From a virus (lineage: Duplodnaviria > Heunggongvirae > Uroviricota > Caudoviricetes), in the IMG/VR virus record IMGVR_UViG_2617270953_000003, positions 1 to 15,307 of that record: 15,307 nucleotides of DNA; one strand, given 5' to 3'. Position 1 is the stretch's first letter, and every line of letters starts with the position of its first letter. The translations under genes and the position numbers were made by a program. The notes below the pieces were generated by a model. The model had not been told where the DNA came from, did not search any database, and saw only the letters and a list, made by a program, of their open reading frames with translations. This document shows positions 2-13,842 of the stretch, piece after piece.

Positions 2-346
2 TTAGTCCTTGCGTAGCTCGCTGATTCTTCTGTAAGTCTCTGGTGCTTTGTTCCCGTACGTCTTCATTTCAGACTTCAACAGAGCAACGAGTGAATCCCA
101 TTCGTTGAGGATTCCTTTGAATGCCGGAACGCGCTTTGCAACCTTGTCGAATGAATCTCTGATTTCTGGAATCTGCTCAACAAGTGCAACGCATCGTCGG
201 AAATCTGCTGCGTCATGTGGAGCGCCGAAGTGATGACCATAGATATTCTTTTTCAGTCCACATGCGATTGAGGCAATAGTTGCGCTACTGATGCCGACAT
301 CGCCAGTCGATTGCCATTTCAAAACCTTCATAGCCAAATCTGACAT
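2..346 (-). CDS. hypothetical protein (about 114 aa), early-left accessory gene
   Basis: Complete ORF with stop at 2-4. The tracked ATG at 373 lies inside a terminator hairpin; the internal ATG at 344-346 (MSDLAMKV...) has a GGAGA Shine-Dalgarno about 7 nt upstream. No family recognised. Confidence 0.5.
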   Translation of the reverse strand: MSDLAMKVLKWQSTGDVGISSATIASIACGLKKNIYGHHFGAPHDAADFRRCVALVEQIPEIRDSFDKVAKRVPAFKGILNEWDSLVALLKSEMKTYGNKAPETYRRISELRKD

Positions 347-360
347 TTCTTGTCTCCAAT

Positions 361-382
361 AAAAAACCGCCATCAGGCGGCT
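361..382 (-). terminator. intrinsic terminator (5-bp GC stem ccgcc/ggcgg, 4-nt loop, T6 tail on minus strand)
   Basis: Plus strand reads aaaaaa-ccgcc-atca-ggcgg; read on the minus strand this is a hairpin followed by TTTTTT. Confidence 0.55.
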
Positions 383-2128: not shown

Positions 2129-2607
2129 CACTCAGACTCCTCCTTGATGCCAGCGGCGCGGGAATCATTCCATCGCTTTACTTCTTCACTAATTACGTCA
2201 ATGCATTCTTTCGAATCCATTAGGTAATCTTCATCAAAAAGACGTTCCTGTTCGTTTTCTATCGCAACAATGATTGCTTCAACTAATTTTTGTGCCTGAG
2301 AATCACTTTCTAACTCTGCAATGCGCTTACTCCCATCCGAGATAACACCTTCGTAATACTCACGCTGCTCGTTGAGTTTTGATTTTGTCTCCTCAAGCTC
2401 AACACGCAGCTTCCCTACCGTTAGCGCAATATCCTCGTTCTCCTGGTCGCGGCGTTTGATGTATTGCTGGTTTCTTTCCCGTTCATCCAGTAGTGCCAGC
2501 ACAACCTGAGGTGTGACCTTCATACGAAATGCCAGCAATTTTTGTGGTGTGGCTGCTATTTTTATTGCTTCTGCCGCATCACGCAGTGCCTGATAGTCAA
2601 TTGTCAT
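2128..2607 (-). CDS. coiled-coil-rich phage protein (159 aa), Ea22-type slot
   Basis: ATG at 2605-2607 overlaps the upstream stop (ATGA). Sequence rich in E/K/R/L/Q heptad-like stretches. Confidence 0.5.
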   Translation of the reverse strand: MTIDYQALRDAAEAIKIAATPQKLLAFRMKVTPQVVLALLDERERNQQYIKRRDQENEDIALTVGKLRVELEETKSKLNEQREYYEGVISDGSKRIAELESDSQAQKLVEAIIVAIENEQERLFDEDYLMDSKECIDVISEEVKRWNDSRAAGIKEESE

Positions 2608-3248
2608 TCTCGCCATCCTTCACAGTTGTAATCACTACAGCCTTCAAAATCATATGGGCTGTACTGCCAGGAGATTTTTCCGCAATGCGGACAATTCCAA
2701 CGCACCTTCCCGCTTCGCGACTTCTTTCTTCTGTTCTGCTCTTTCAACCAGTCAGGCATGACCAAACCTGCGCCCTGAACCATTGTTCTGCGGTTAAAGT
2801 TATTGATATTGAACGTCCTGCGCTTTGCTGCATCAGCAATGGAAAATGGCAACCAAACTATTCCTGGTTCGTTTTTGTTGGCGACGCTAAAGATGGTCGC
2901 TTTACTGAAGTCATCTGTTGGCAATCCACCGTGTTGAAGCCAGTAAACATCGTTGCCGTTCCAGCTACCTTTTTTGTAGGCCACATACGCAGTGCAATCT
3001 GACTCAATCAGGCTTTCTGTAGGGATGTACTGGCAATCAACGTGCCACACTGCCATTGCATCCACGCTATCAGCGCAAACAGGCTGATCGATATCTCGCC
3101 CACAATTCCAGGCTTTTTGGGCTTCTTCCAGCGTGTAAACATGAGCGCGATCGATATCAGAACTGTAACCATTGCCGTTATGGCAATGGAATGAAGCGTT
3201 ATTGCCCACAGTTTCACGCGAGCACATCATGTAAAAACGGTTAGTCAC
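2604..3248 (-). CDS. hypothetical protein with Cys/His clusters (214 aa), GTG start
   Basis: AAGGAGG RBS (plus-strand cctcctt at 3255-3261) 6 nt upstream of GTG at 3246-3248, overlapping the upstream stop (GTGA). C-terminal CPHCG...C...C and N-terminal CHNGNG motifs. Confidence 0.5.
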
Positions 3249-3412
3249 TGGCTGCCTCCTTTGCGCCACATCGCATTCAGATATTTGTTTTCATTCACTG
3301 ATGGAAAAGAATTTCTCTTAAGTAATTCCTCTCTCGATGGCATTGGCTTTACGCGTTGGCGAATAATCATTTCTGCCGGAAGAATGCCGGGATTGTATGC
3401 AAGTCCTCTCAT
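3245..3412 (-). CDS. small hypothetical protein (55 aa)
   Basis: ATG at 3410-3412 with GAGGA RBS at 7 nt spacing; the longer tracked ORF (to 3562) overlaps the upstream gene and lacks an RBS. Confidence 0.35.
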
Positions 3413-3422
3413 GGTAAATTCC

Positions 3423-3716
3423 TCAGTCATTACTGATAGCGCCATAACGTGAGCGGTAATTACGCAGGCGCGGGTCAATTTCAGGGAAGTGGGTATATGT
3501 GGCTTTGCGGAATGGTCGGATTGATGTCTGGTAAATTCGCTCGCGTTCTTCTTTCTCTGCAAGCCATATACAGTGGCGAAATTCCTTTTCCTCTTTCGTT
3601 TCCTGCGGTAGAGACATTATCCGGTCGTAGTTTTTTCTGAATTTATCCAGCACCTCCGATACGGAATTGCCGGAACAGCGGCGCACGTCGTCCGCACCAT
3701 ACAGAGGCGCTGGCAT
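3423..3716 (-). CDS. Abc2-like (anti-RecBCD) candidate, 97 aa
   Basis: Sits promoter-distal to erf, where P22-like phages carry abc genes; similar size to P22 Abc2; AAGGA RBS. Identity is from recall and position only. Confidence 0.45.
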
Positions 3717-3739
3717 AATTAAATCCTTATTGTTCTAAA

Positions 3740-4123
3740 TCAGAATGGGATGGAATCGTCGTATACAGGAGTGTTCTGCTGGTTACTACTTTGCCGCTGC
3801 GGGCCATTTCCTGAAGCTGCAAATCCAATCTTTGCATTCAGTAATTCAAGAGTGATTGATTGACCATTTTGCCCCTGATAAACATCAACCCTGATGTTTT
3901 CTCCGGTAATTTCCACAATTCCACCTTCAACAAGAACACTACGGTAGTAATCCGCTTGCGCTCCCGGCTTGGCAAATACAACGGCGCTGTAGTTTATCCA
4001 TTCTTTCTTTTTTGTCTGGCGATCGTAATACTGAACGCCAGCACGGATGTTGAATCCGATATTTTCCCCGGCCTGAAACTCTCTTGCGGGCTTGTTTAGT
4101 CTTACAGTAATCGAATGTGCCAT
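3740..4123 (-). CDS. ssb: single-stranded DNA-binding protein (short SSB, 127 aa)
   Basis: C-terminal acidic tail ...PVYDDSIPF matches the SSB DDDIPF-type tail; ATG at 4121-4123 overlaps the erf stop (TAATG). Confidence 0.6.
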   Translation of the reverse strand: MAHSITVRLNKPAREFQAGENIGFNIRAGVQYYDRQTKKKEWINYSAVVFAKPGAQADYYRSVLVEGGIVEITGENIRVDVYQGQNGQSITLELLNAKIGFAASGNGPQRQSSNQQNTPVYDDSIPF

Positions 4124-5238: not shown

Positions 5239-5655
5239 TTATTTGAAGATTTCTATGAAATCAAGAACTGATGATATTTCGTGGTTGAACGATTTTCTTT
5301 TGTATCTTTCTATCGCAGAATCCACCTGGTGTTTATAGTCATCGTCGTTTGAGTATTTAACGAAGCATTCTATTGTCTCAGGCGTTACAGCTATAAGGCT
5401 CCACCAACCTTCATCAGATTGATATTCAAATCCCATGCTTTCAAGCCATCCAGCATATTTCCCTCCAGCATCTTGCCAGTGTGTTTTTTCTGCAAGGAAG
5501 CTGTTAACCGTCATATGTGCATCAAGGCATTTATCCAACTGTTTACCATTAAGTAGCCATGCGCTGACAGTTGCACAACCCAAATCAACTGATTGAGTAG
5601 AGATATTGAATTGGTCGTAATTATCTGGATTAACCAGAATATCTGTAATTTTCAT
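5239..5655 (-). CDS. hypothetical acidic, Trp-rich protein (138 aa), ea10-position cargo
   Basis: ATG at 5653-5655 with GGAGG RBS at 4 nt; immediately preceded by an intrinsic terminator; no family recognised. Confidence 0.55.
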   Translation of the reverse strand: MKITDILVNPDNYDQFNISTQSVDLGCATVSAWLLNGKQLDKCLDAHMTVNSFLAEKTHWQDAGGKYAGWLESMGFEYQSDEGWWSLIAVTPETIECFVKYSNDDDYKHQVDSAIERYKRKSFNHEISSVLDFIEIFK

Positions 5656-5667
5656 AATTCCTCCGTC

Positions 5668-5696
5668 AAAAAAATTGCCCTCACACTGGAGGGCAA
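5668..5696 (-). terminator. intrinsic terminator within the pL operon (8-bp stem ttgccctc/gagggcaa, 6-nt loop, T7 tail on minus strand)
   Basis: Perfect 8-bp inverted repeat at 5675-5682 and 5689-5696 with an A7 run at 5668-5674 (T7 on the minus strand). Confidence 0.6.
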
Positions 5697-5830
5697 AGAA
5701 GATTTCCAATAATCAGAACAAGTCGGCTCCTGTTTAGTTACGAGCGACATTGCTCCGTGTATTCACTCGTTGGAATGAATACACAGTGCAGTGTTTATTC
5801 TGTTGTTTATGCCAAAAATGAAGGCCACCA

Positions 5831-6159: not shown

Positions 6160-6543
6160 TCATCTCGCCGTCAGTTGTTTTGATTTCCGGTATCCTGCTG
6201 CGTAAAGAGCTACATTTGGAAGACATACACCAGTTTCTGGTTGCTTATGTCCAAACTCATTCGCGTACACAATGGCCGCTCTCTCCAGATTGCGTCTGTA
6301 TTCTTTCTGTTGCCAGATCACGTCCTGTGCCATGAACTTAATTGGCTTAGCGTCTTCTATGCGCTCAGGCGTTTCGTGAGTACCTTTAGCCTGAATCTGC
6401 GCTCTGCTTAGAGTAGGGCGGTGTAATACTTCTGAACTTATTGCTTCTTCGCGGGCCAGTACGCCGTTAGCTAATGCCTTTGCCTTTAAACGCTCACGAC
6501 GACGAGAACGTGAATTGCCTTTGAACTGAGTTCTGCGTGTCAT
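6160..6543 (-). CDS. N: N-type transcription antiterminator, P22 gene-24-like (127 aa)
   Basis: AGGAGG RBS 6 nt upstream of ATG at 6541-6543; N-terminal arginine-rich motif RRTQFKGNSRSRRRERLKAK; C-terminus ...VALYAAGYRKSKQLTAR resembles P22 N; first gene after pL and nutL. Confidence 0.7.
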   Translation of the reverse strand: MTRRTQFKGNSRSRRRERLKAKALANGVLAREEAISSEVLHRPTLSRAQIQAKGTHETPERIEDAKPIKFMAQDVIWQQKEYRRNLERAAIVYANEFGHKQPETGVCLPNVALYAAGYRKSKQLTAR

Positions 6544-6671
6544 ATAGACCTCCTGGTGAACTTTGGCGGTGAATACAGCCGGGCGACTAACTCCGGTAGC
6601 GTAATCATTGCAAAGCGCCTCCGCCGAGAAGGTTAGCTTCTGCATTCACCCCAAAGTTCACTTTGGTTATT

Positions 6672-6754: not shown

Positions 6755-6817
6755 AGTATCACCGCCAGTGGTATTTATGTCAACACCGCTAGAGATAATT
6801 CATCACCGCAGATGGTT
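6755..6817 (-). promoter_or_regulatory. OL1-OL2-OL3 operators and pL promoter (lambda immunity type)
   Basis: 17-mers tatcaccgccagtggta (6757-6773), caacaccgctagagata (6781-6797), catcaccgcagatggtt (6801-6817); on the minus strand -35 TTGACA (6778-6783) and -10 GATACT (6755-6760). Confidence 0.85.
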
Positions 6818-6932: not shown

Positions 6933-6970
6933 TTGGTTATGTGTTCTTGGGTGAGGGGGATCGTGAGGCA

Positions 6971-6995
6971 AAGAAAACCCGGCTCTGTGGCCGGG
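6971..6995 (-). terminator. tImm-like intrinsic terminator ending the cI operon
   Basis: Stem cccggc/gccggg (6978-6983, 6990-6995), 6-nt loop, TTTTCTT tail on the minus strand; begins about 10 nt after the stop at 7004. Confidence 0.6.
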
Positions 6996-7003
6996 AATAA
7001 CAT

Positions 7004-7382
7004 TTAGGAATCAAGGTCAGGTAGCATGATTTTCTCAATCAACGTCAATGCCCTTTGGTCTCGTTCAGCAAAATATTTAGGAGCGTACTGAGGCAGCCAC
7101 ACTTCGTTGAAGTATTGTTTGAAATCTGCAATATTCGTTTGGGTATAGACGTACCGGGAATGTCCGGCCATCTGGGTACTCATGGTTATATGTTGGGAAT
7201 GTCTTCGGCTCACCCCCCCGGTTGTCACGGAGCCATTGCGAGAAAACCCTACCCTCTGAAATATCAGGGACCATTTTTTCTGGCAGCGTATATCCGGCCT
7301 GTTCAAGTGGCGCAACCAAGTTAAACGTCAGTTCATTAAGCATAGAAAAGTGCGTATGAGGAACTCTGCCTCGGTTTGTCAT
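7004..7382 (-). CDS. rex-slot ORF split across two frames: frame A 7077-7382 (101 aa) and frame B 7004-7327 (+1 offset); possible frameshifted gene
   Basis: Two overlapping minus-strand ORFs offset by +1 share a C7 tract (7213-7219; G7 on the coding strand) and an A6/T6 tract (7275-7280). Frame B ends 10 nt before the terminator; frame A has a poor RBS. Confidence 0.35.
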
Positions 7383-7421
7383 ATACCGCTTAAGGTGGAT
7401 AGGGAGTTCGGCAGGCGCTCT

Positions 7422-7763
7422 TTAACCTGACATCCACTCACGCACCCATCTCGATACTTGCACTGCAAATTTTGGAGATAGCCACTGAGCTAAATTAATT
7501 GCGATGTCTGGATGAACCCAAGTCCCTTGATTCTCTGCTCTTCCGCCTTTAAATGATTGAATTAACTCCGATATGGGAATCCCCATATCGCGTGATAATT
7601 CATCAAAAAAATCTTGTGTTGTTTTTAGTCGTGTATAGTCAGCAAGTAGCTTCCCCGCAGACTTGCACATCGCGGTGGCATTGATGTATCCGTCTTTGGT
7701 GCGAAGATGGATGACTTCTCCATCAACTTCTCTAGCGATTAATGCAAGTTGAAATTGTGTCAT
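7422..7763 (-). CDS. KilA-N domain protein (113 aa), directly downstream of cI
   Basis: Motifs DGYINATAMCK...GTWVHPDIAINLAQWLSPKFAVQVSRWV are typical of the KilA-N (APSES-like) DNA-binding domain; AGGA RBS; starts 31 nt after the cI stop. Confidence 0.75.
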   Translation of the reverse strand: MTQFQLALIAREVDGEVIHLRTKDGYINATAMCKSAGKLLADYTRLKTTQDFFDELSRDMGIPISELIQSFKGGRAENQGTWVHPDIAINLAQWLSPKFAVQVSRWVREWMSG

Positions 7764-7794
7764 AAATCATCCTATTACGTGAAAAATAAAACAA

Positions 7795-8511
<717 letters not shown>

Positions 8512-8518
8512 TTAAATC

Positions 8519-8584
8519 TATCACCGCAAGGGATAAACTTCTAACACCGTGCGTGTTGACTATTTTACCTCTAGCGGTGATAAT
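8519..8584. promoter_or_regulatory. OR3-OR2-OR1 operators with divergent pRM (minus) and pR (plus) promoters
   Basis: OR3 tatcaccgcaagggata (8519-8535), OR2 taacaccgtgcgtgttg (8542-8558), OR1 tacctctagcggtgata (8566-8582); pR -35 TTGACT (8556-8561) and -10 GATAAT (8579-8584) with 17-bp spacing. Confidence 0.9.
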
Positions 8585-9275: not shown

Positions 9276-9437
9276 ATGACAAAACGTCGTAAGAAATACC
9301 AGGAAAAAGAAGAGATTCGACACCCTGATTCACCTGAGGGATTAGTGGTAGCCGCAGCAAATAACAGGGCGTTCGCAGAGCGCCTTGTTGGTGTTTACAG
9401 ACTAGCCAAAGTAGGAGTGAAACATGGGCGTCGTTAA
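9276..9437 (+). CDS. small basic ORF (53 aa) between cII and the replication gene
   Basis: Hand-translated MTKRRKKYQEKEEIRHPDSPEGLVVAAANNRAFAERLVGVYRLAKVGVKHGRR; CAGGAG RBS 5 nt upstream of the ATG; 3' end overlaps the replication-gene start by 14 nt. Confidence 0.35.
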   Translation: MTKRRKKYQEKEEIRHPDSPEGLVVAAANNRAFAERLVGVYRLAKVGVKHGRR

Positions 9438-10314
9438 GTTAGCTGATTACAGGCATAACCCTGTACAACATCAGGAGGCATCCAGTATGGGGTATGTCTC
9501 TATACACCGCCAGTTTATGGACAGCAGGCTCTATAAGGACTCTCAGGCAGTACATCTTTGGCTTCACTTAATCCTCAAGGCTAATCACGAATCTACTGTC
9601 GTCAATACGGATATCGGTCCGATAACTGTTGATCGCGGTCAGATGATAACTGGACGCCCGTCGCTGGTCAGAGAAACATTCATCCCCGACAACAAAGTTC
9701 GGAGCTTATTACGGACTTTTGAGTCGAAAGGTATGCTTAATATTTGCTCGATGGGGAAGAAATTTAGCCTGTTTACAATCGTTAAATATGACGATTTTCA
9801 GGCAAAAAATTGTCCAACGGTTGTCCAACAGTTGTCCAACGCAAACACCAGTAATGGTGCGGCTCTCAGCGGAGATTGTCCAACGGTTGTCCAACAGTTG
9901 TCCATAAACAATAATATAAATAATATCTCTAATACTGACGTATTAGAGAGTGCTACAGCAGACAAAAAGTCTGACAAGAAAAAACCTTCCGTCAGCTGTC
10001 AGGATGTTGTCGATGCTTACCACGAAATCCTTCCTGAAGCGCCAAGAATCCGCGCACTGAATGACAAGCGTAAAAACCAGATCCGAACGTTCTGGCGCAA
10101 AGCCGGAGTGATAACCCGCCAGCTTGACGGACATGGGTTCACGATGCAGGACTGGAGAAATTATTTGAGCTACGTAGGCGAAAATTGCCGATGGATGTTC
10201 GAAGAGCGTCCAAACCATCAACGCGGAACTGTCTGGCACAAAAAGGGATTTGATTTCCTGCTTAACGATAATACCTACCTGAAAGTTCGTGAGGGTGAAC
10301 ACGATGACCGATAA
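9424..10314 (+). CDS. replication initiator (O-like, non-lambda allele) with the origin inside the gene
   Basis: AGGAG RBS; O-type N-terminal region; iteron array embedded in the coding sequence (encoding repeated CPTVVQQLS); followed by a DnaB-family helicase gene. Confidence 0.8.
   Translation: MGVVKLADYRHNPVQHQEASSMGYVSIHRQFMDSRLYKDSQAVHLWLHLILKANHESTVVNTDIGPITVDRGQMITGRPSLVRETFIPDNKVRSLLRTFESKGMLNICSMGKKFSLFTIVKYDDFQAKNCPTVVQQLSNANTSNGAALSGDCPTVVQQLSINNNINNISNTDVLESATADKKSDKKKPSVSCQDVVDAYHEILPEAPRIRALNDKRKNQIRTFWRKAGVITRQLDGHGFTMQDWRNYLSYVGENCRWMFEERPNHQRGTVWHKKGFDFLLNDNTYLKVREGEHDDR
9810..9950. repeat. origin iterons: two copies of a 3 x TTGTCCAAC array (9810-9840 and 9876-9906) plus AT-rich tract (9906-9950)
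   Basis: ttgtccaacGGttgtccaacAGttgtccaac occurs twice about 66 bp apart (last unit of the second copy is ttgtccata), followed by aaacaataatataaataatatctctaatactgacgtattagag. Confidence 0.8.
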
Positions 10315-11816: not shown

Positions 11817-12257
11817 ATGAAAAAACTAACCTTTGAAATTCGATCTCCGGCACATCAGCAAAACGCTATTCACGCAGTACAGCAAATCCTTCCAGACCCA
11901 ACCAAGCCAATCGTAGTGATCATTCAGGAGCGCAACCGCAGCTTAGACCAGAATCGGAAGCTTTGGGCTTGCCTTGGTGACGTCTCTCGTCAGGTTGAAT
12001 GGCATGGGCGTTGGCTGGATGCAGAAAGCTGGAAGTGTGTGTTTACCGCAGCATTAAAGCAGCAGGACGTTGTTCCTAACCTTGCCGGGAATGGCTTTGT
12101 GGTAATAGGCCAGTCAACCAGCAGGATGCGTGTAAGCGAATTTGCGGAGTTATTAGAGCTTATACAGGCATTCGGTACAGAGCGTGGCGTTAAGTGGTCA
12201 GACGAAGCGCGACTGGCTCTGGAGTGGAAAGCGAGATGGGGAGACAGTGCTGCATGA
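11817..12257 (+). CDS. ninB: NinB (Orf family recombination mediator)
   Basis: Protein MKKLTFEIRSPAHQQNAIHAVQQILPDPTKPIVV... matches my recall of lambda NinB; real start is the internal ATG at 11817. Confidence 0.9.
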   Translation: MKKLTFEIRSPAHQQNAIHAVQQILPDPTKPIVVIIQERNRSLDQNRKLWACLGDVSRQVEWHGRWLDAESWKCVFTAALKQQDVVPNLAGNGFVVIGQSTSRMRVSEFAELLELIQAFGTERGVKWSDEARLALEWKARWGDSAA

Positions 12258-12781
12258 CTATCAAATCAAATACGCCAGCACACGACAAGGACTGCTGGCA
12301 AACGCCGCTCTGGCTTTTTGATGCACTGGATATTGAGTTTGGATTCTGGCTGGATTCGGCAGCGAGCGACAAAAATGCTCTGTGCGCTCACTGGCTAACT
12401 GAGGCTGACAACGCGCTCAATTCTGAGTGGATAAGCCACGGTGCAATCTGGAATAACCCACCGTACAGCAATATCAGGCCGTGGGTGGAAAAAGCCGCTG
12501 AGCAGTGCATACAACAGCGACAGACGGTAGTGATGCTTGTGCCAGAGGATATGTCAGTCGGATGGTTCAGCAAGGCTCTGGAGAGTGTTGACGAAGTTCG
12601 TATTATCACTGATGGACGGATTAATTTTATCGAACCATCGACAGGGCTGGAGAAAAAGGGAAACAGCAAAGGCTCCATGCTGCTGATTTGGCGACCGTTC
12701 ATCAGTCCTCGACGGATGTTTACTACCGTATCCAAAGCGGCATTGATGGCGATCGGGCAGGGCGTCAGGAGGGCAGCATGA
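12254..12781 (+). CDS. dam: phage DNA N6-adenine methyltransferase (Dam family), in the ninC/ninD slot
   Basis: Catalytic NPPY motif (IWNNPPYSN); ATGA overlap with the ninB stop; size about 175 aa. Confidence 0.8.
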
Positions 12782-12960: not shown

Positions 12961-13127
12961 TTGACCAAAATCGAAGTTACGAACAAGGAAGTGTCGAGCG
13001 AGCTTTAACGTGCGCTAACTGCGGTAAGAAGCTGCATGTGCTGGAAGTTCACGTGTGTGAGCACTGCTGCGCAGAACTGATGAGCGATCCGAATAGCTCA
13101 ATGTACGAGGAAGAAGACGATGAATGA
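12957..13127 (+). CDS. ninF: NinF (56 aa, GTG start, four-Cys motif)
   Basis: Hand-translated (V/M)[55 protein letters not shown]; GTGA overlap with the ninE stop; resembles lambda NinF. Confidence 0.8.
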
Positions 13128-13842
13128 GTTAATAAATGGCAATGCCATCAAAATGACAAGCATTGAAATCGCTGAGTTGGTTGGTAAGCGTCATGACAAT
13201 GTGAAACGTACCATCGAAACGCTGGCTAAAAATGGTGTTATCCGGCTTCCTCAAATTGAGGATTGTGGAAGAATCAATGGGTTAGGCTTAAATCAAAGTT
13301 TTTGTGTGTATGTATTCGAAGGCGAACAAGGAAAGCGAGACAGTATTGTCGTTGTAGCCCAGTTGTCGCCGGAATTCACCGCTCGTCTTGTTGACCGTTG
13401 GCGAGAGCTTGAAGAAACTGCGGTTAATATCCCCAAAACGCTACCAGAAGCGTTGCGCCTTGCTGCTGATCTTGCTGAGCAGAAAATGCAACTGGAAAAC
13501 CAGCTCGCAATTGCCGCACCTAAAGTTGAGTTTGCCGATCGCGTTGGCGAGGCCAGCGGAATTTTGATTGGAAACTTTGCAAAGGTTGTTGGAATTGGTC
13601 CAAACAAACTGTTTGCGTGGATGCGCGATCACAAAATCCTTATTGCTTCAGGTTCCCGGCGCAATGTGCCAATGCAGGAATATATGGATCGCGGCTATTT
13701 CACAGTGAAAGAAACAGCGGTCAACACAAATCACGGAATACAGATATCGTTCACCACAAAAATCACCGGCCGTGGTCAACAGTGGCTGACCAGAAAGCTG
13801 CTCGATAACGGAATGCTGAAAGTAACAGGGGAGGCTGCTTAA
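13120..13842 (+). CDS. phage antirepressor-like protein (Rha-type N-terminal region plus KilAC/ANT-type C-terminal region), Roi-like, 240 aa
   Basis: N-terminus ...MTSIEIAELVGKRHDNVKRTIETLAKNGVI... is Rha-family-like; C-terminal half resembles antirepressor KilAC; GAGGAAG RBS; overlaps the ninF end. Confidence 0.65.
   Translation: MNELINGNAIKMTSIEIAELVGKRHDNVKRTIETLAKNGVIRLPQIEDCGRINGLGLNQSFCVYVFEGEQGKRDSIVVVAQLSPEFTARLVDRWRELEETAVNIPKTLPEALRLAADLAEQKMQLENQLAIAAPKVEFADRVGEASGILIGNFAKVVGIGPNKLFAWMRDHKILIASGSRRNVPMQEYMDRGYFTVKETAVNTNHGIQISFTTKITGRGQQWLTRKLLDNGMLKVTGEAA

Follow-up and report, generated by a model that had tools for sequence, protein, structure and literature searches.

In phage lambda, the slot between the repressor gene cI and the terminator Timm is occupied by rexA and rexB. 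In the stretch of phage DNA considered here (15,307 nt, hereafter referred to as the window), the same slot holds other coding sequence, and this raises the question of what has taken the place of rexAB and whether it constitutes a new prophage defence. The original prediction saw in the slot a 113-aa protein consisting of a KilA-N domain only, together with one downstream ORF of 100-125 aa belonging to no recognisable family, and regarded this pair as the best candidate in the window for an undescribed defence or exclusion module expressed in lysogens. Our analysis leads to a different reading, namely that positions 7004-7763 (minus strand) hold a pseudogene of a BstA-family prophage defence gene, to which we assign a probability of about 0.88. 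The coordinates of all features that enter the argument are collected in Table 1.

Table 1 Features of the slot and of its boundaries. Positions are those of the window; residue numbers are those of the intact 253-aa protein.
Feature	Positions	Strand	Description and evidence
N	6160-6645	minus	N peptide family match
PL promoter	6755-6783	minus	TTGACA-17-GATACT; promoter scan; bounds the slot on the N side
Rho-independent terminator (Timm)	6968-6995	minus	Terminator scan; 9 nt past the native stop codon
Probable BstA-family pseudogene, KilA-N + BstA_C	7004-7763	minus	Intact allele of 253 aa, one 762-bp CDS in relatives
Third piece, original-frame 3' end	7004-7131	minus	Residues 213-253 and native stop
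2-bp deletion	7132-7133	minus	CT/TC of Leu212 codon CTT; frame shifted; alignment with intact alleles
Second piece, ORF of 101 aa	7077-7382	minus	BstA_C residues Met128-Tyr211 and 17 out-of-frame residues
Nonsense mutation	7424	minus	Coding-strand G to T, GAA (Glu114) to TAA, in the interdomain linker; alignment with intact alleles
First piece, ORF of 113 aa	7422-7763	minus	Residues 1-113; complete KilA-N/APSES DNA-binding domain; ends at premature TAA (7422-7424)
Positional equivalent of BTP1 aba	7730-7792	minus	Assigned by position only
cI-bstA intergenic spacer	7764-7794	minus	31 nt; AGGA 7 nt 5' of ATG (sequence)
Lambda-type cI repressor	7795-8508	minus	237 aa; HTH_3 + Peptidase_S24 (Pfam); 96.2% nt identity, lambda cI-cro
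PR promoter within the OR region	8556-8584	plus	Promoter scan

Genomic context of the locus

The window represents the early region of a lambdoid/P22-like prophage, with cro and cII on the plus strand. The minus strand carries cI, followed by the 113-aa ORF, two overlapping ORFs, the terminator, PL and N, in that order. The cI-cro region is 96.2% identical to that of lambda (J02459), with the homology starting at window position 7794, which is the base adjoining the cI stop codon (7795-7797). As homology to lambda ends together with cI, rexAB has been replaced by whatever follows cI. Indeed, the lambda rex region has no nucleotide match in the window in the comparison with J02459, and there is no Rex family among the Pfam, PADLOC and PHROG matches, such that the cargo is of a non-rex type, as had been predicted. 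The boundaries of the slot were also drawn correctly, with a lambda-type cI on one side and a rho-independent terminator on the other. The stem of this terminator (6995-6978, CCCGGCcacagaGCCGGG on the minus strand) is followed by the T-run TTTTCTTT, and the region shares 94.8% identity with the part of HK542/HK244 in which Timm is annotated.

The bstA-family cargo probably shares the cI transcript, given that the two genes are separated by only 31 nt, that AGGA precedes the ATG by 7 nt, that no sigma-70 consensus promoter was detected between cI and the bstA-family gene in the promoter scan, and that Timm lies at the end. PRM, on the strand opposite PR and just upstream of cI, is the presumed source of this transcript, and PRM/OR are annotated in the homologous HK542 and HK544 records.

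A comparison of the slot across lambda-immunity phages places the window among related cases. HK542, HK244 and HK544 (GenBank EF120455-EF120458) have cI, operators and Timm in common with the window and vary in the genes in between, where they carry unrelated two-gene cargos (HK542c104/c105 and HK544c103/c104). The cI-Timm slot is a known mosaic hotspot. Lambda rexA/rexB occupy the same slot, and, as is expected of the bstA-family gene, they provide an abortive-infection function in lysogens off the repressor transcript; the synteny of bstA with lambda rexAB was pointed out by Owen et al. 2021 (PMC8585504). Nonetheless, the two share no sequence relationship, and while rexA/rexB are a sensor and membrane-channel pair, the bstA-family product would be one soluble protein of the DNA-binding type. 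The expectation that this is a slot for lysogen-expressed defence was thus well founded, both by the logic of the slot and by the family found in it, which is one of lysogen-expressed abortive-infection defence; what did not stand is that the defence is undescribed. In lambda-immunity prophages, the cI-Timm slot is confirmed as a hotspot for lysogen-expressed defence, which Owen et al. 2021 (PMC8585504) had noted before and which can also be seen in the HK phage records.

Reconstruction of a single gene

Downstream of the 113-aa ORF, not one ORF but two are found, of 101 aa (7077-7382) and 103 aa (7004-7315), which overlap and are read in different frames. In phage PhiR5_2 (PV340546.1; protein XSB41358.1, at 3101-3862 of our locus L001) and in E. 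coli ML35 (WP_000191544.1), the same place is occupied by a single 762-bp CDS encoding 253 aa, with ~99% nucleotide identity to the window. The gene of these intact relatives sits after a lambda-type cI, in the same slot as in the window. When the window was compared base by base with the intact allele, the differences amounted to the stop, the 2-bp deletion and three substitutions, of which one replaces His218 by Tyr (H218Y), one is synonymous (at 7755) and one is private to the window (V184G, at 7213). The stop falls into the linker between the two domains, which shows low pLDDT near residues 113-121 in the predicted model. The third piece is read solely within the final part of the mechanical ORF 7004-7315, the rest of which is out of frame. 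Upon in-silico repair of both lesions, the window gene encodes 253 aa, of which 251 are identical to the intact protein.

The two lesions, considered together with the intact relatives, show that the KilA-N ORF and the downstream ORFs are one split gene, and the existence of a near-identical intact allele marks the split as a recent lesion. Both domains within one uninterrupted polypeptide (about 250-307 aa) are present in the intact sister alleles and absent in the window. Accordingly, the proposed two-gene module is a single gene divided by a nonsense mutation and a frameshift, and serves as an example of how an ORF-by-ORF reading can make one broken gene look like a "two-gene module".

Assignment to the BstA family

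The 113-aa ORF matches Pfam KilA-N (PF04383) with an E-value of 1.7e-27 over residues 13-112, and is, as described originally, a protein with a complete KilA-N domain and nothing else. The remainder of the gene, for which no family had been recognised, was assigned by several searches. Along its whole length, the 253-aa protein of the intact allele matches PHROG 6287 ("BstA abortive infection system, replication inhibitor"; E 1.8e-82), while the match to the PADLOC BstA model, which covers the C-domain only, spans residues 120-237 (E 2.5e-20). The window fragments themselves are also recognised, ORF 7077-7382 by PADLOC BstA (E 4.7e-12) and PHROG 6287 (E 1.8e-29), and ORF 7004-7315 by PADLOC BstA (E 7e-4). 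According to precomputed labels, all of the top database homologues carry PF04383 together with PF26567 (BstA_C), and the 55-aa remnant of the window allele in ten other assemblies was labelled 'BstA_C (weak)' by gene callers. Against BTP1 BstA, BLASTP revealed 29% identity over 133 aa of the C-domain (E 5e-15), while hhalign with a profile of the subfamily (29 sequences) aligned 199 columns with a probability of 97.9% and an E-value of 5.7e-13, with the alignment reaching into the N-domain from residue 44. Position points in the same direction, as a repressor-adjacent gene with a rho-independent terminator of its own, as published for bstA, is found in the window, and as the corresponding slot of the sister prophage of strain PK12 contains a protein of 301 aa that RefSeq names 'BstA C-terminal domain-containing protein'.

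Some of the searches were silent. With local Pfam, neither the downstream ORFs nor the C-terminal half of the intact protein had a match, because the copy used lacks PF26567 (BstA_C); a verdict of "no known family" based on local Pfam alone was therefore discarded, having been overturned by PADLOC, PHROGs and the precomputed Pfam labels. The NCBIfam search returned no match, and the PDB sequence search returned only Mbp1, on the N-domain. Judged by these profile and sequence matches, the gene is a homologue of the already described BstA abortive-infection family (PMC8585504). The HMM searches did thus identify a family for the downstream part, in PADLOC, in PHROGs and in Pfam BstA_C, yet it is a known family and not a new one. 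The subfamily that combines a canonical KilA-N domain with BstA_C is widespread, with 2748 database matches at E <= 1e-5.

Comparison with BTP1 BstA and expected loss of function

BstA was described by Owen et al. 2021 (PMC8585504) as a prophage-encoded abortive-infection protein that is expressed in lysogens, its gene usually following directly after that of the repressor. It co-localises with foreign phage DNA undergoing replication and blocks this process, and stop codons introduced into BTP1 bstA abolish defence (PMC8585504). The homologue set of that study comprises 72 sequences (PMC8585504); our literature search found no newer papers on the BstA mechanism. BTP1 BstA (st313-td, from a Salmonella prophage) resembles the intact allele in joining an N-domain of the KilA-N type to a BstA_C C-domain, and BTP1 bstA resembles the window locus in lying directly downstream of the repressor and ahead of a rho-independent terminator. 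Several differences should be considered, however. The intact allele has 253 aa and BTP1 BstA 307 aa; the N-domain of the intact allele is a canonical Pfam KilA-N, whereas BTP1 BstA has no Pfam match at all; the gap to cI measures 31 nt in the window, as opposed to the 88 nt that separate bstA from the repressor in BTP1; and the window copy, unlike BTP1 bstA, is broken by a stop and a frameshift. As the three experimentally tested proteins (BTP1 BstA, BstA-Ec and BstA-Kp) are only distantly related to the canonical-KilA-N subfamily, the defence role of the members of this widespread subfamily is a putative one, drawn by analogy.

In its intact form, the gene encodes a single polypeptide of 253 aa in which a KilA-N/APSES DNA-binding domain precedes a BstA_C domain. 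Lying directly after the repressor gene and ending at Timm, it would be made in lysogens on the repressor transcript and, by homology to BTP1 BstA, the protein may gather at replicating foreign phage DNA and block its replication. The phage that carries the gene would be spared thanks to a cognate aba DNA element at the 5' end of bstA. In the window copy, the TAA at codon 114 uncouples the two domains exactly at the interdomain linker, while the 2-bp deletion at codon 212 costs the last 42 residues, such that at most a free 113-aa KilA-N domain would be made, conferring no defence. Among 118 homologues, F215, F219, W223, Y231 and F232 are invariant, and all five lie beyond the frameshift, which removes residues 212-253. 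The nearly invariant H218, moreover, is Tyr in the third piece of the window copy. The window copy is most likely dead for defence, because its domains are unlinked by the stop and because its last 42 residues, including the five invariant positions, are lost, and loss of function is also what the effect of stop codons in BTP1 bstA leads one to expect. As a candidate for defence, the locus thus falls short of what had been proposed for it. The dead allele is remarkably common and thereby offers a ready-made natural control against which the intact allele can be assayed for defence and aba activity.

The aba element consists of 63 bp of DNA, comprising the 29 bp upstream of bstA and its first 34 bp, and lets the phage that carries it escape (PMC8585504). 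It acts at high copy number, is specific to the homologue and is defined only by function (PMC8585504). In the window, the region equivalent to aba by position is undamaged, with the synonymous change at 7755 being the sole difference from the intact alleles. BTP1 shows terminal direct repeats of the CCCGCC type around the start codon, while no such aba-like repeats were found around the start codon in the window. An inverted repeat (TCAACTT/AAGTTGA) is present at window 7722-7752 (minus strand; +11 to +41 of the gene) and is kept as TCAATT/AATTGA, in a manner that looks compensatory, in a 77%-identical allele (L002). We considered this repeat (at +11/+34) as an aba-like element and dropped it, as it is absent in distant homologues (L008 and L012); the repeat is probably due to chance.

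Distribution of the disrupted allele

Both lesions are found in 12 other assemblies that we checked base by base (EC2641, 1008S19 and ten more), and all 12 agree with the window throughout bstA and the flanking sequence, the one exception being base 7213, which is private to the window. The ten, which were retrieved via the exact 113-aa sequence, are identical over 6960-7800 with the same exception, and carry the allele beside a lambda-type cI/cro/cII in different prophage mosaics, several of which are visibly degraded. In EC2641 and 1008S19, the only product that PGAP annotates at the locus is the 113-aa KilA-N protein WP_227164514.1. In a 13th assembly, that of E. coli strain 81 (2512-3270 of L019), both lesions are joined by a 1-bp deletion at window ~7219, 87 nt upstream of the 2-bp deletion. 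The net change of -3 restores the frame, leaving ~29 codons out of frame, including those of invariant residues, and PGAP annotates a 112-aa 'hypothetical protein'. The stop and the frameshift are inherited and are not sequencing errors. When the whole window was compared with complete E. coli genomes, the best coverage was 59%, while a gut-metagenome scaffold (L026) shows the same gene order as the window.

Disruption of this gene is not confined to the window haplotype. Close alleles (>=95% identity) are present in 22 complete E. coli genomes, five of which are disrupted, and it should be noted that of these 22, four were confirmed as intact or disrupted by annotation and alignment, whereas the other intact ones were so classed on the basis of scores identical to that of ML35. 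Other truncations in the same protein cluster measure 69, 81, 93, 124, 144, 175, 176 and 239 aa, and this variety of lengths indicates that the gene decays repeatedly. In a Rac-like prophage of E. coli H5 (NZ_CP010169.1; 2504-3265 of L017), an allele with 96.6% identity follows an XRE-family repressor and has the TAA at codon 114 but not the frameshift. Across alleles, the adjacent sites 7425 and 7424 present all four haplotypes, which implies two origins for the stop or for the synonymous change next to it, or else an unusual recombination.

The number of copies raises the matter of whether the broken allele is merely decaying or is retained for some benefit. At least 1000 public contigs (in 1970 index blocks) encode the exact 113-aa product, in several Enterobacteriaceae and in many prophage mosaics, while the exact intact 253-aa protein occurs on 924 contigs and a one-residue variant of it on 670. 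The KilA-N stub, together with an intact aba, might neutralise or titrate the cognate BstA or, alternatively, the allele might be a successful "cheater", possessing a working aba and perhaps a free KilA-N domain off the cI transcript, and thus enjoying aba immunity without the cost of abortive infection. Were this so, the prophage could replicate in hosts that carry the cognate intact BstA without killing its own host upon infection, and this could explain both an allele as common as the intact gene and a codon-114 stop on two backgrounds. In addition to its abundance, the position of the stop, exactly at the domain boundary such that a whole folded domain is left, the recurrence of the same stop on the H5 background, with the four haplotypes at 7425/7424, the undamaged 5' region of the window copy and the finding that BTP1 bstA bearing stop codons keeps aba self-immunity (PMC8585504) are all in line with such a role. 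However, the spread of the stub is explained by hitch-hiking with cI, which lies only 31 nt away, and the 12 copies that match the window but for one base speak of recent spread rather than of long maintenance. Moreover, the many other truncations in the protein cluster of the stub are as expected for random decay, and the 5' end of the stub showed none of the aba-like repeats. Hitch-hiking with cI and the near-identity of the sampled copies are the simpler explanation, and we consider both the useful stub and the "cheater" to be unlikely.

Further explanations considered

The gene might not be a defence gene at all, as KilA-N domains are known in antirepressors and regulators, and a regulator of the Bro/Ant/KilA kind could act in phage gene control or in host killing. 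Indeed, the N-domain matches PHROG 129 'transcriptional regulator' with an E-value of 8e-24, and close relatives are named 'DNA-binding protein' in GenBank records. However, the C-domain is BstA_C, with no match to ANT/KilAC or Bro-C in the C-terminal region, and the best full-length match is the BstA PHROG rather than a regulator. The position after the repressor fits bstA, one homologue has an MmeI-type restriction-modification gene as its neighbour in an integrase island, and a separate Rha/ANT antirepressor is already present in the window (13120-13842). A regulatory gene is thus very unlikely.

A working split system, in which a two-component defence is formed by the KilA-N protein and a C-terminal protein translated on its own, would rescue the idea of a pair. 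Owen et al. (PMC8585504) reported natural homologues that consist of the N part alone or of the C part alone, and in strain H5, which has the stop, the C-terminal frame is open and is annotated as a separate 113-aa protein. In the window, however, the C part is itself frameshifted, with the loss of 42 residues, five of them invariant, and inspection of the sequence upstream of Met128 (ORF 7077-7382) revealed no convincing or usable Shine-Dalgarno from which it could be translated separately. As the near-identical intact allele also shows the split to be recent, we hold a functional split to be highly improbable. Finally, that the two lesions are sequencing or assembly errors in a gene that is intact in the organism is extremely unlikely, since, although a 2-bp indel and a single-base change are differences of the error type, both lesions recur in 13 other assemblies, which differ in laboratory, country and prophage context, and the same 113-aa product, WP_227164514.1, is annotated by PGAP in three complete genomes. 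The pseudogene of a BstA-family gene is thus the reading that we retain, and the window locus holds nothing more unusual than a known prophage defence gene in decay, with little at stake.

Other genes of the window and related loci

Elsewhere in the window, the ORFs at 2604-3269 (minus, 221 aa), 5239-5709 (minus, 156 aa), 9424-10314 (plus, 296 aa) and 2-373 (minus, 123 aa) have no Pfam match, and the 221-, 156- and 123-aa ORFs, which were also scanned with PADLOC, have no match there either. The 296-aa ORF is found at the place expected for a replication initiator, upstream of a DnaB-like helicase. In the early-left region, a 164-aa protein (1637-2131, minus) shows a weak match to the Mom family (PF25680; E 2.9e-5, 24.2 bits, below the cut-off of 27.1) and may be a GNAT-like DNA-modification or anti-restriction enzyme. 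The ORF at 12194-12781 (plus), which overlaps the end of ninB, encodes a phage N6-adenine methyltransferase (PADLOC orphan-methyltransferase models, E 9.8e-20). The antirepressor-type protein at 13120-13842 is encoded on the plus strand in the nin region, combines Rha with ANT (KilAC) (Pfam ANT, E 8e-33) and is unrelated to the BstA locus.

Relatives of the gene are also found in other settings. The prophage of E. coli PK12 (7861-8766 of L006) has a backbone similar to that of the window and a different repressor, with a BstA of the classic type (301 aa) in the same slot, such that different immunity types go with different BstA types. A 60%-identical homologue (4001-4750 of L008-L011) lies in an integrase-bounded island beside a 993-aa restriction-modification enzyme of the MmeI/Eco57I type, a setting that corresponds to a defence island outside the prophage immunity region. 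In Vibrio, copies of the subfamily are found among short cassette-like genes. The 77%-identical allele, of 257 aa, is present in 117 complete E. coli genomes and, in phage vB_EcoS-613R10 (2983-3756 of L002), lies between the replication genes and Q rather than beside cI, indicating that the family uses a second locus in lambdoid phages as well.
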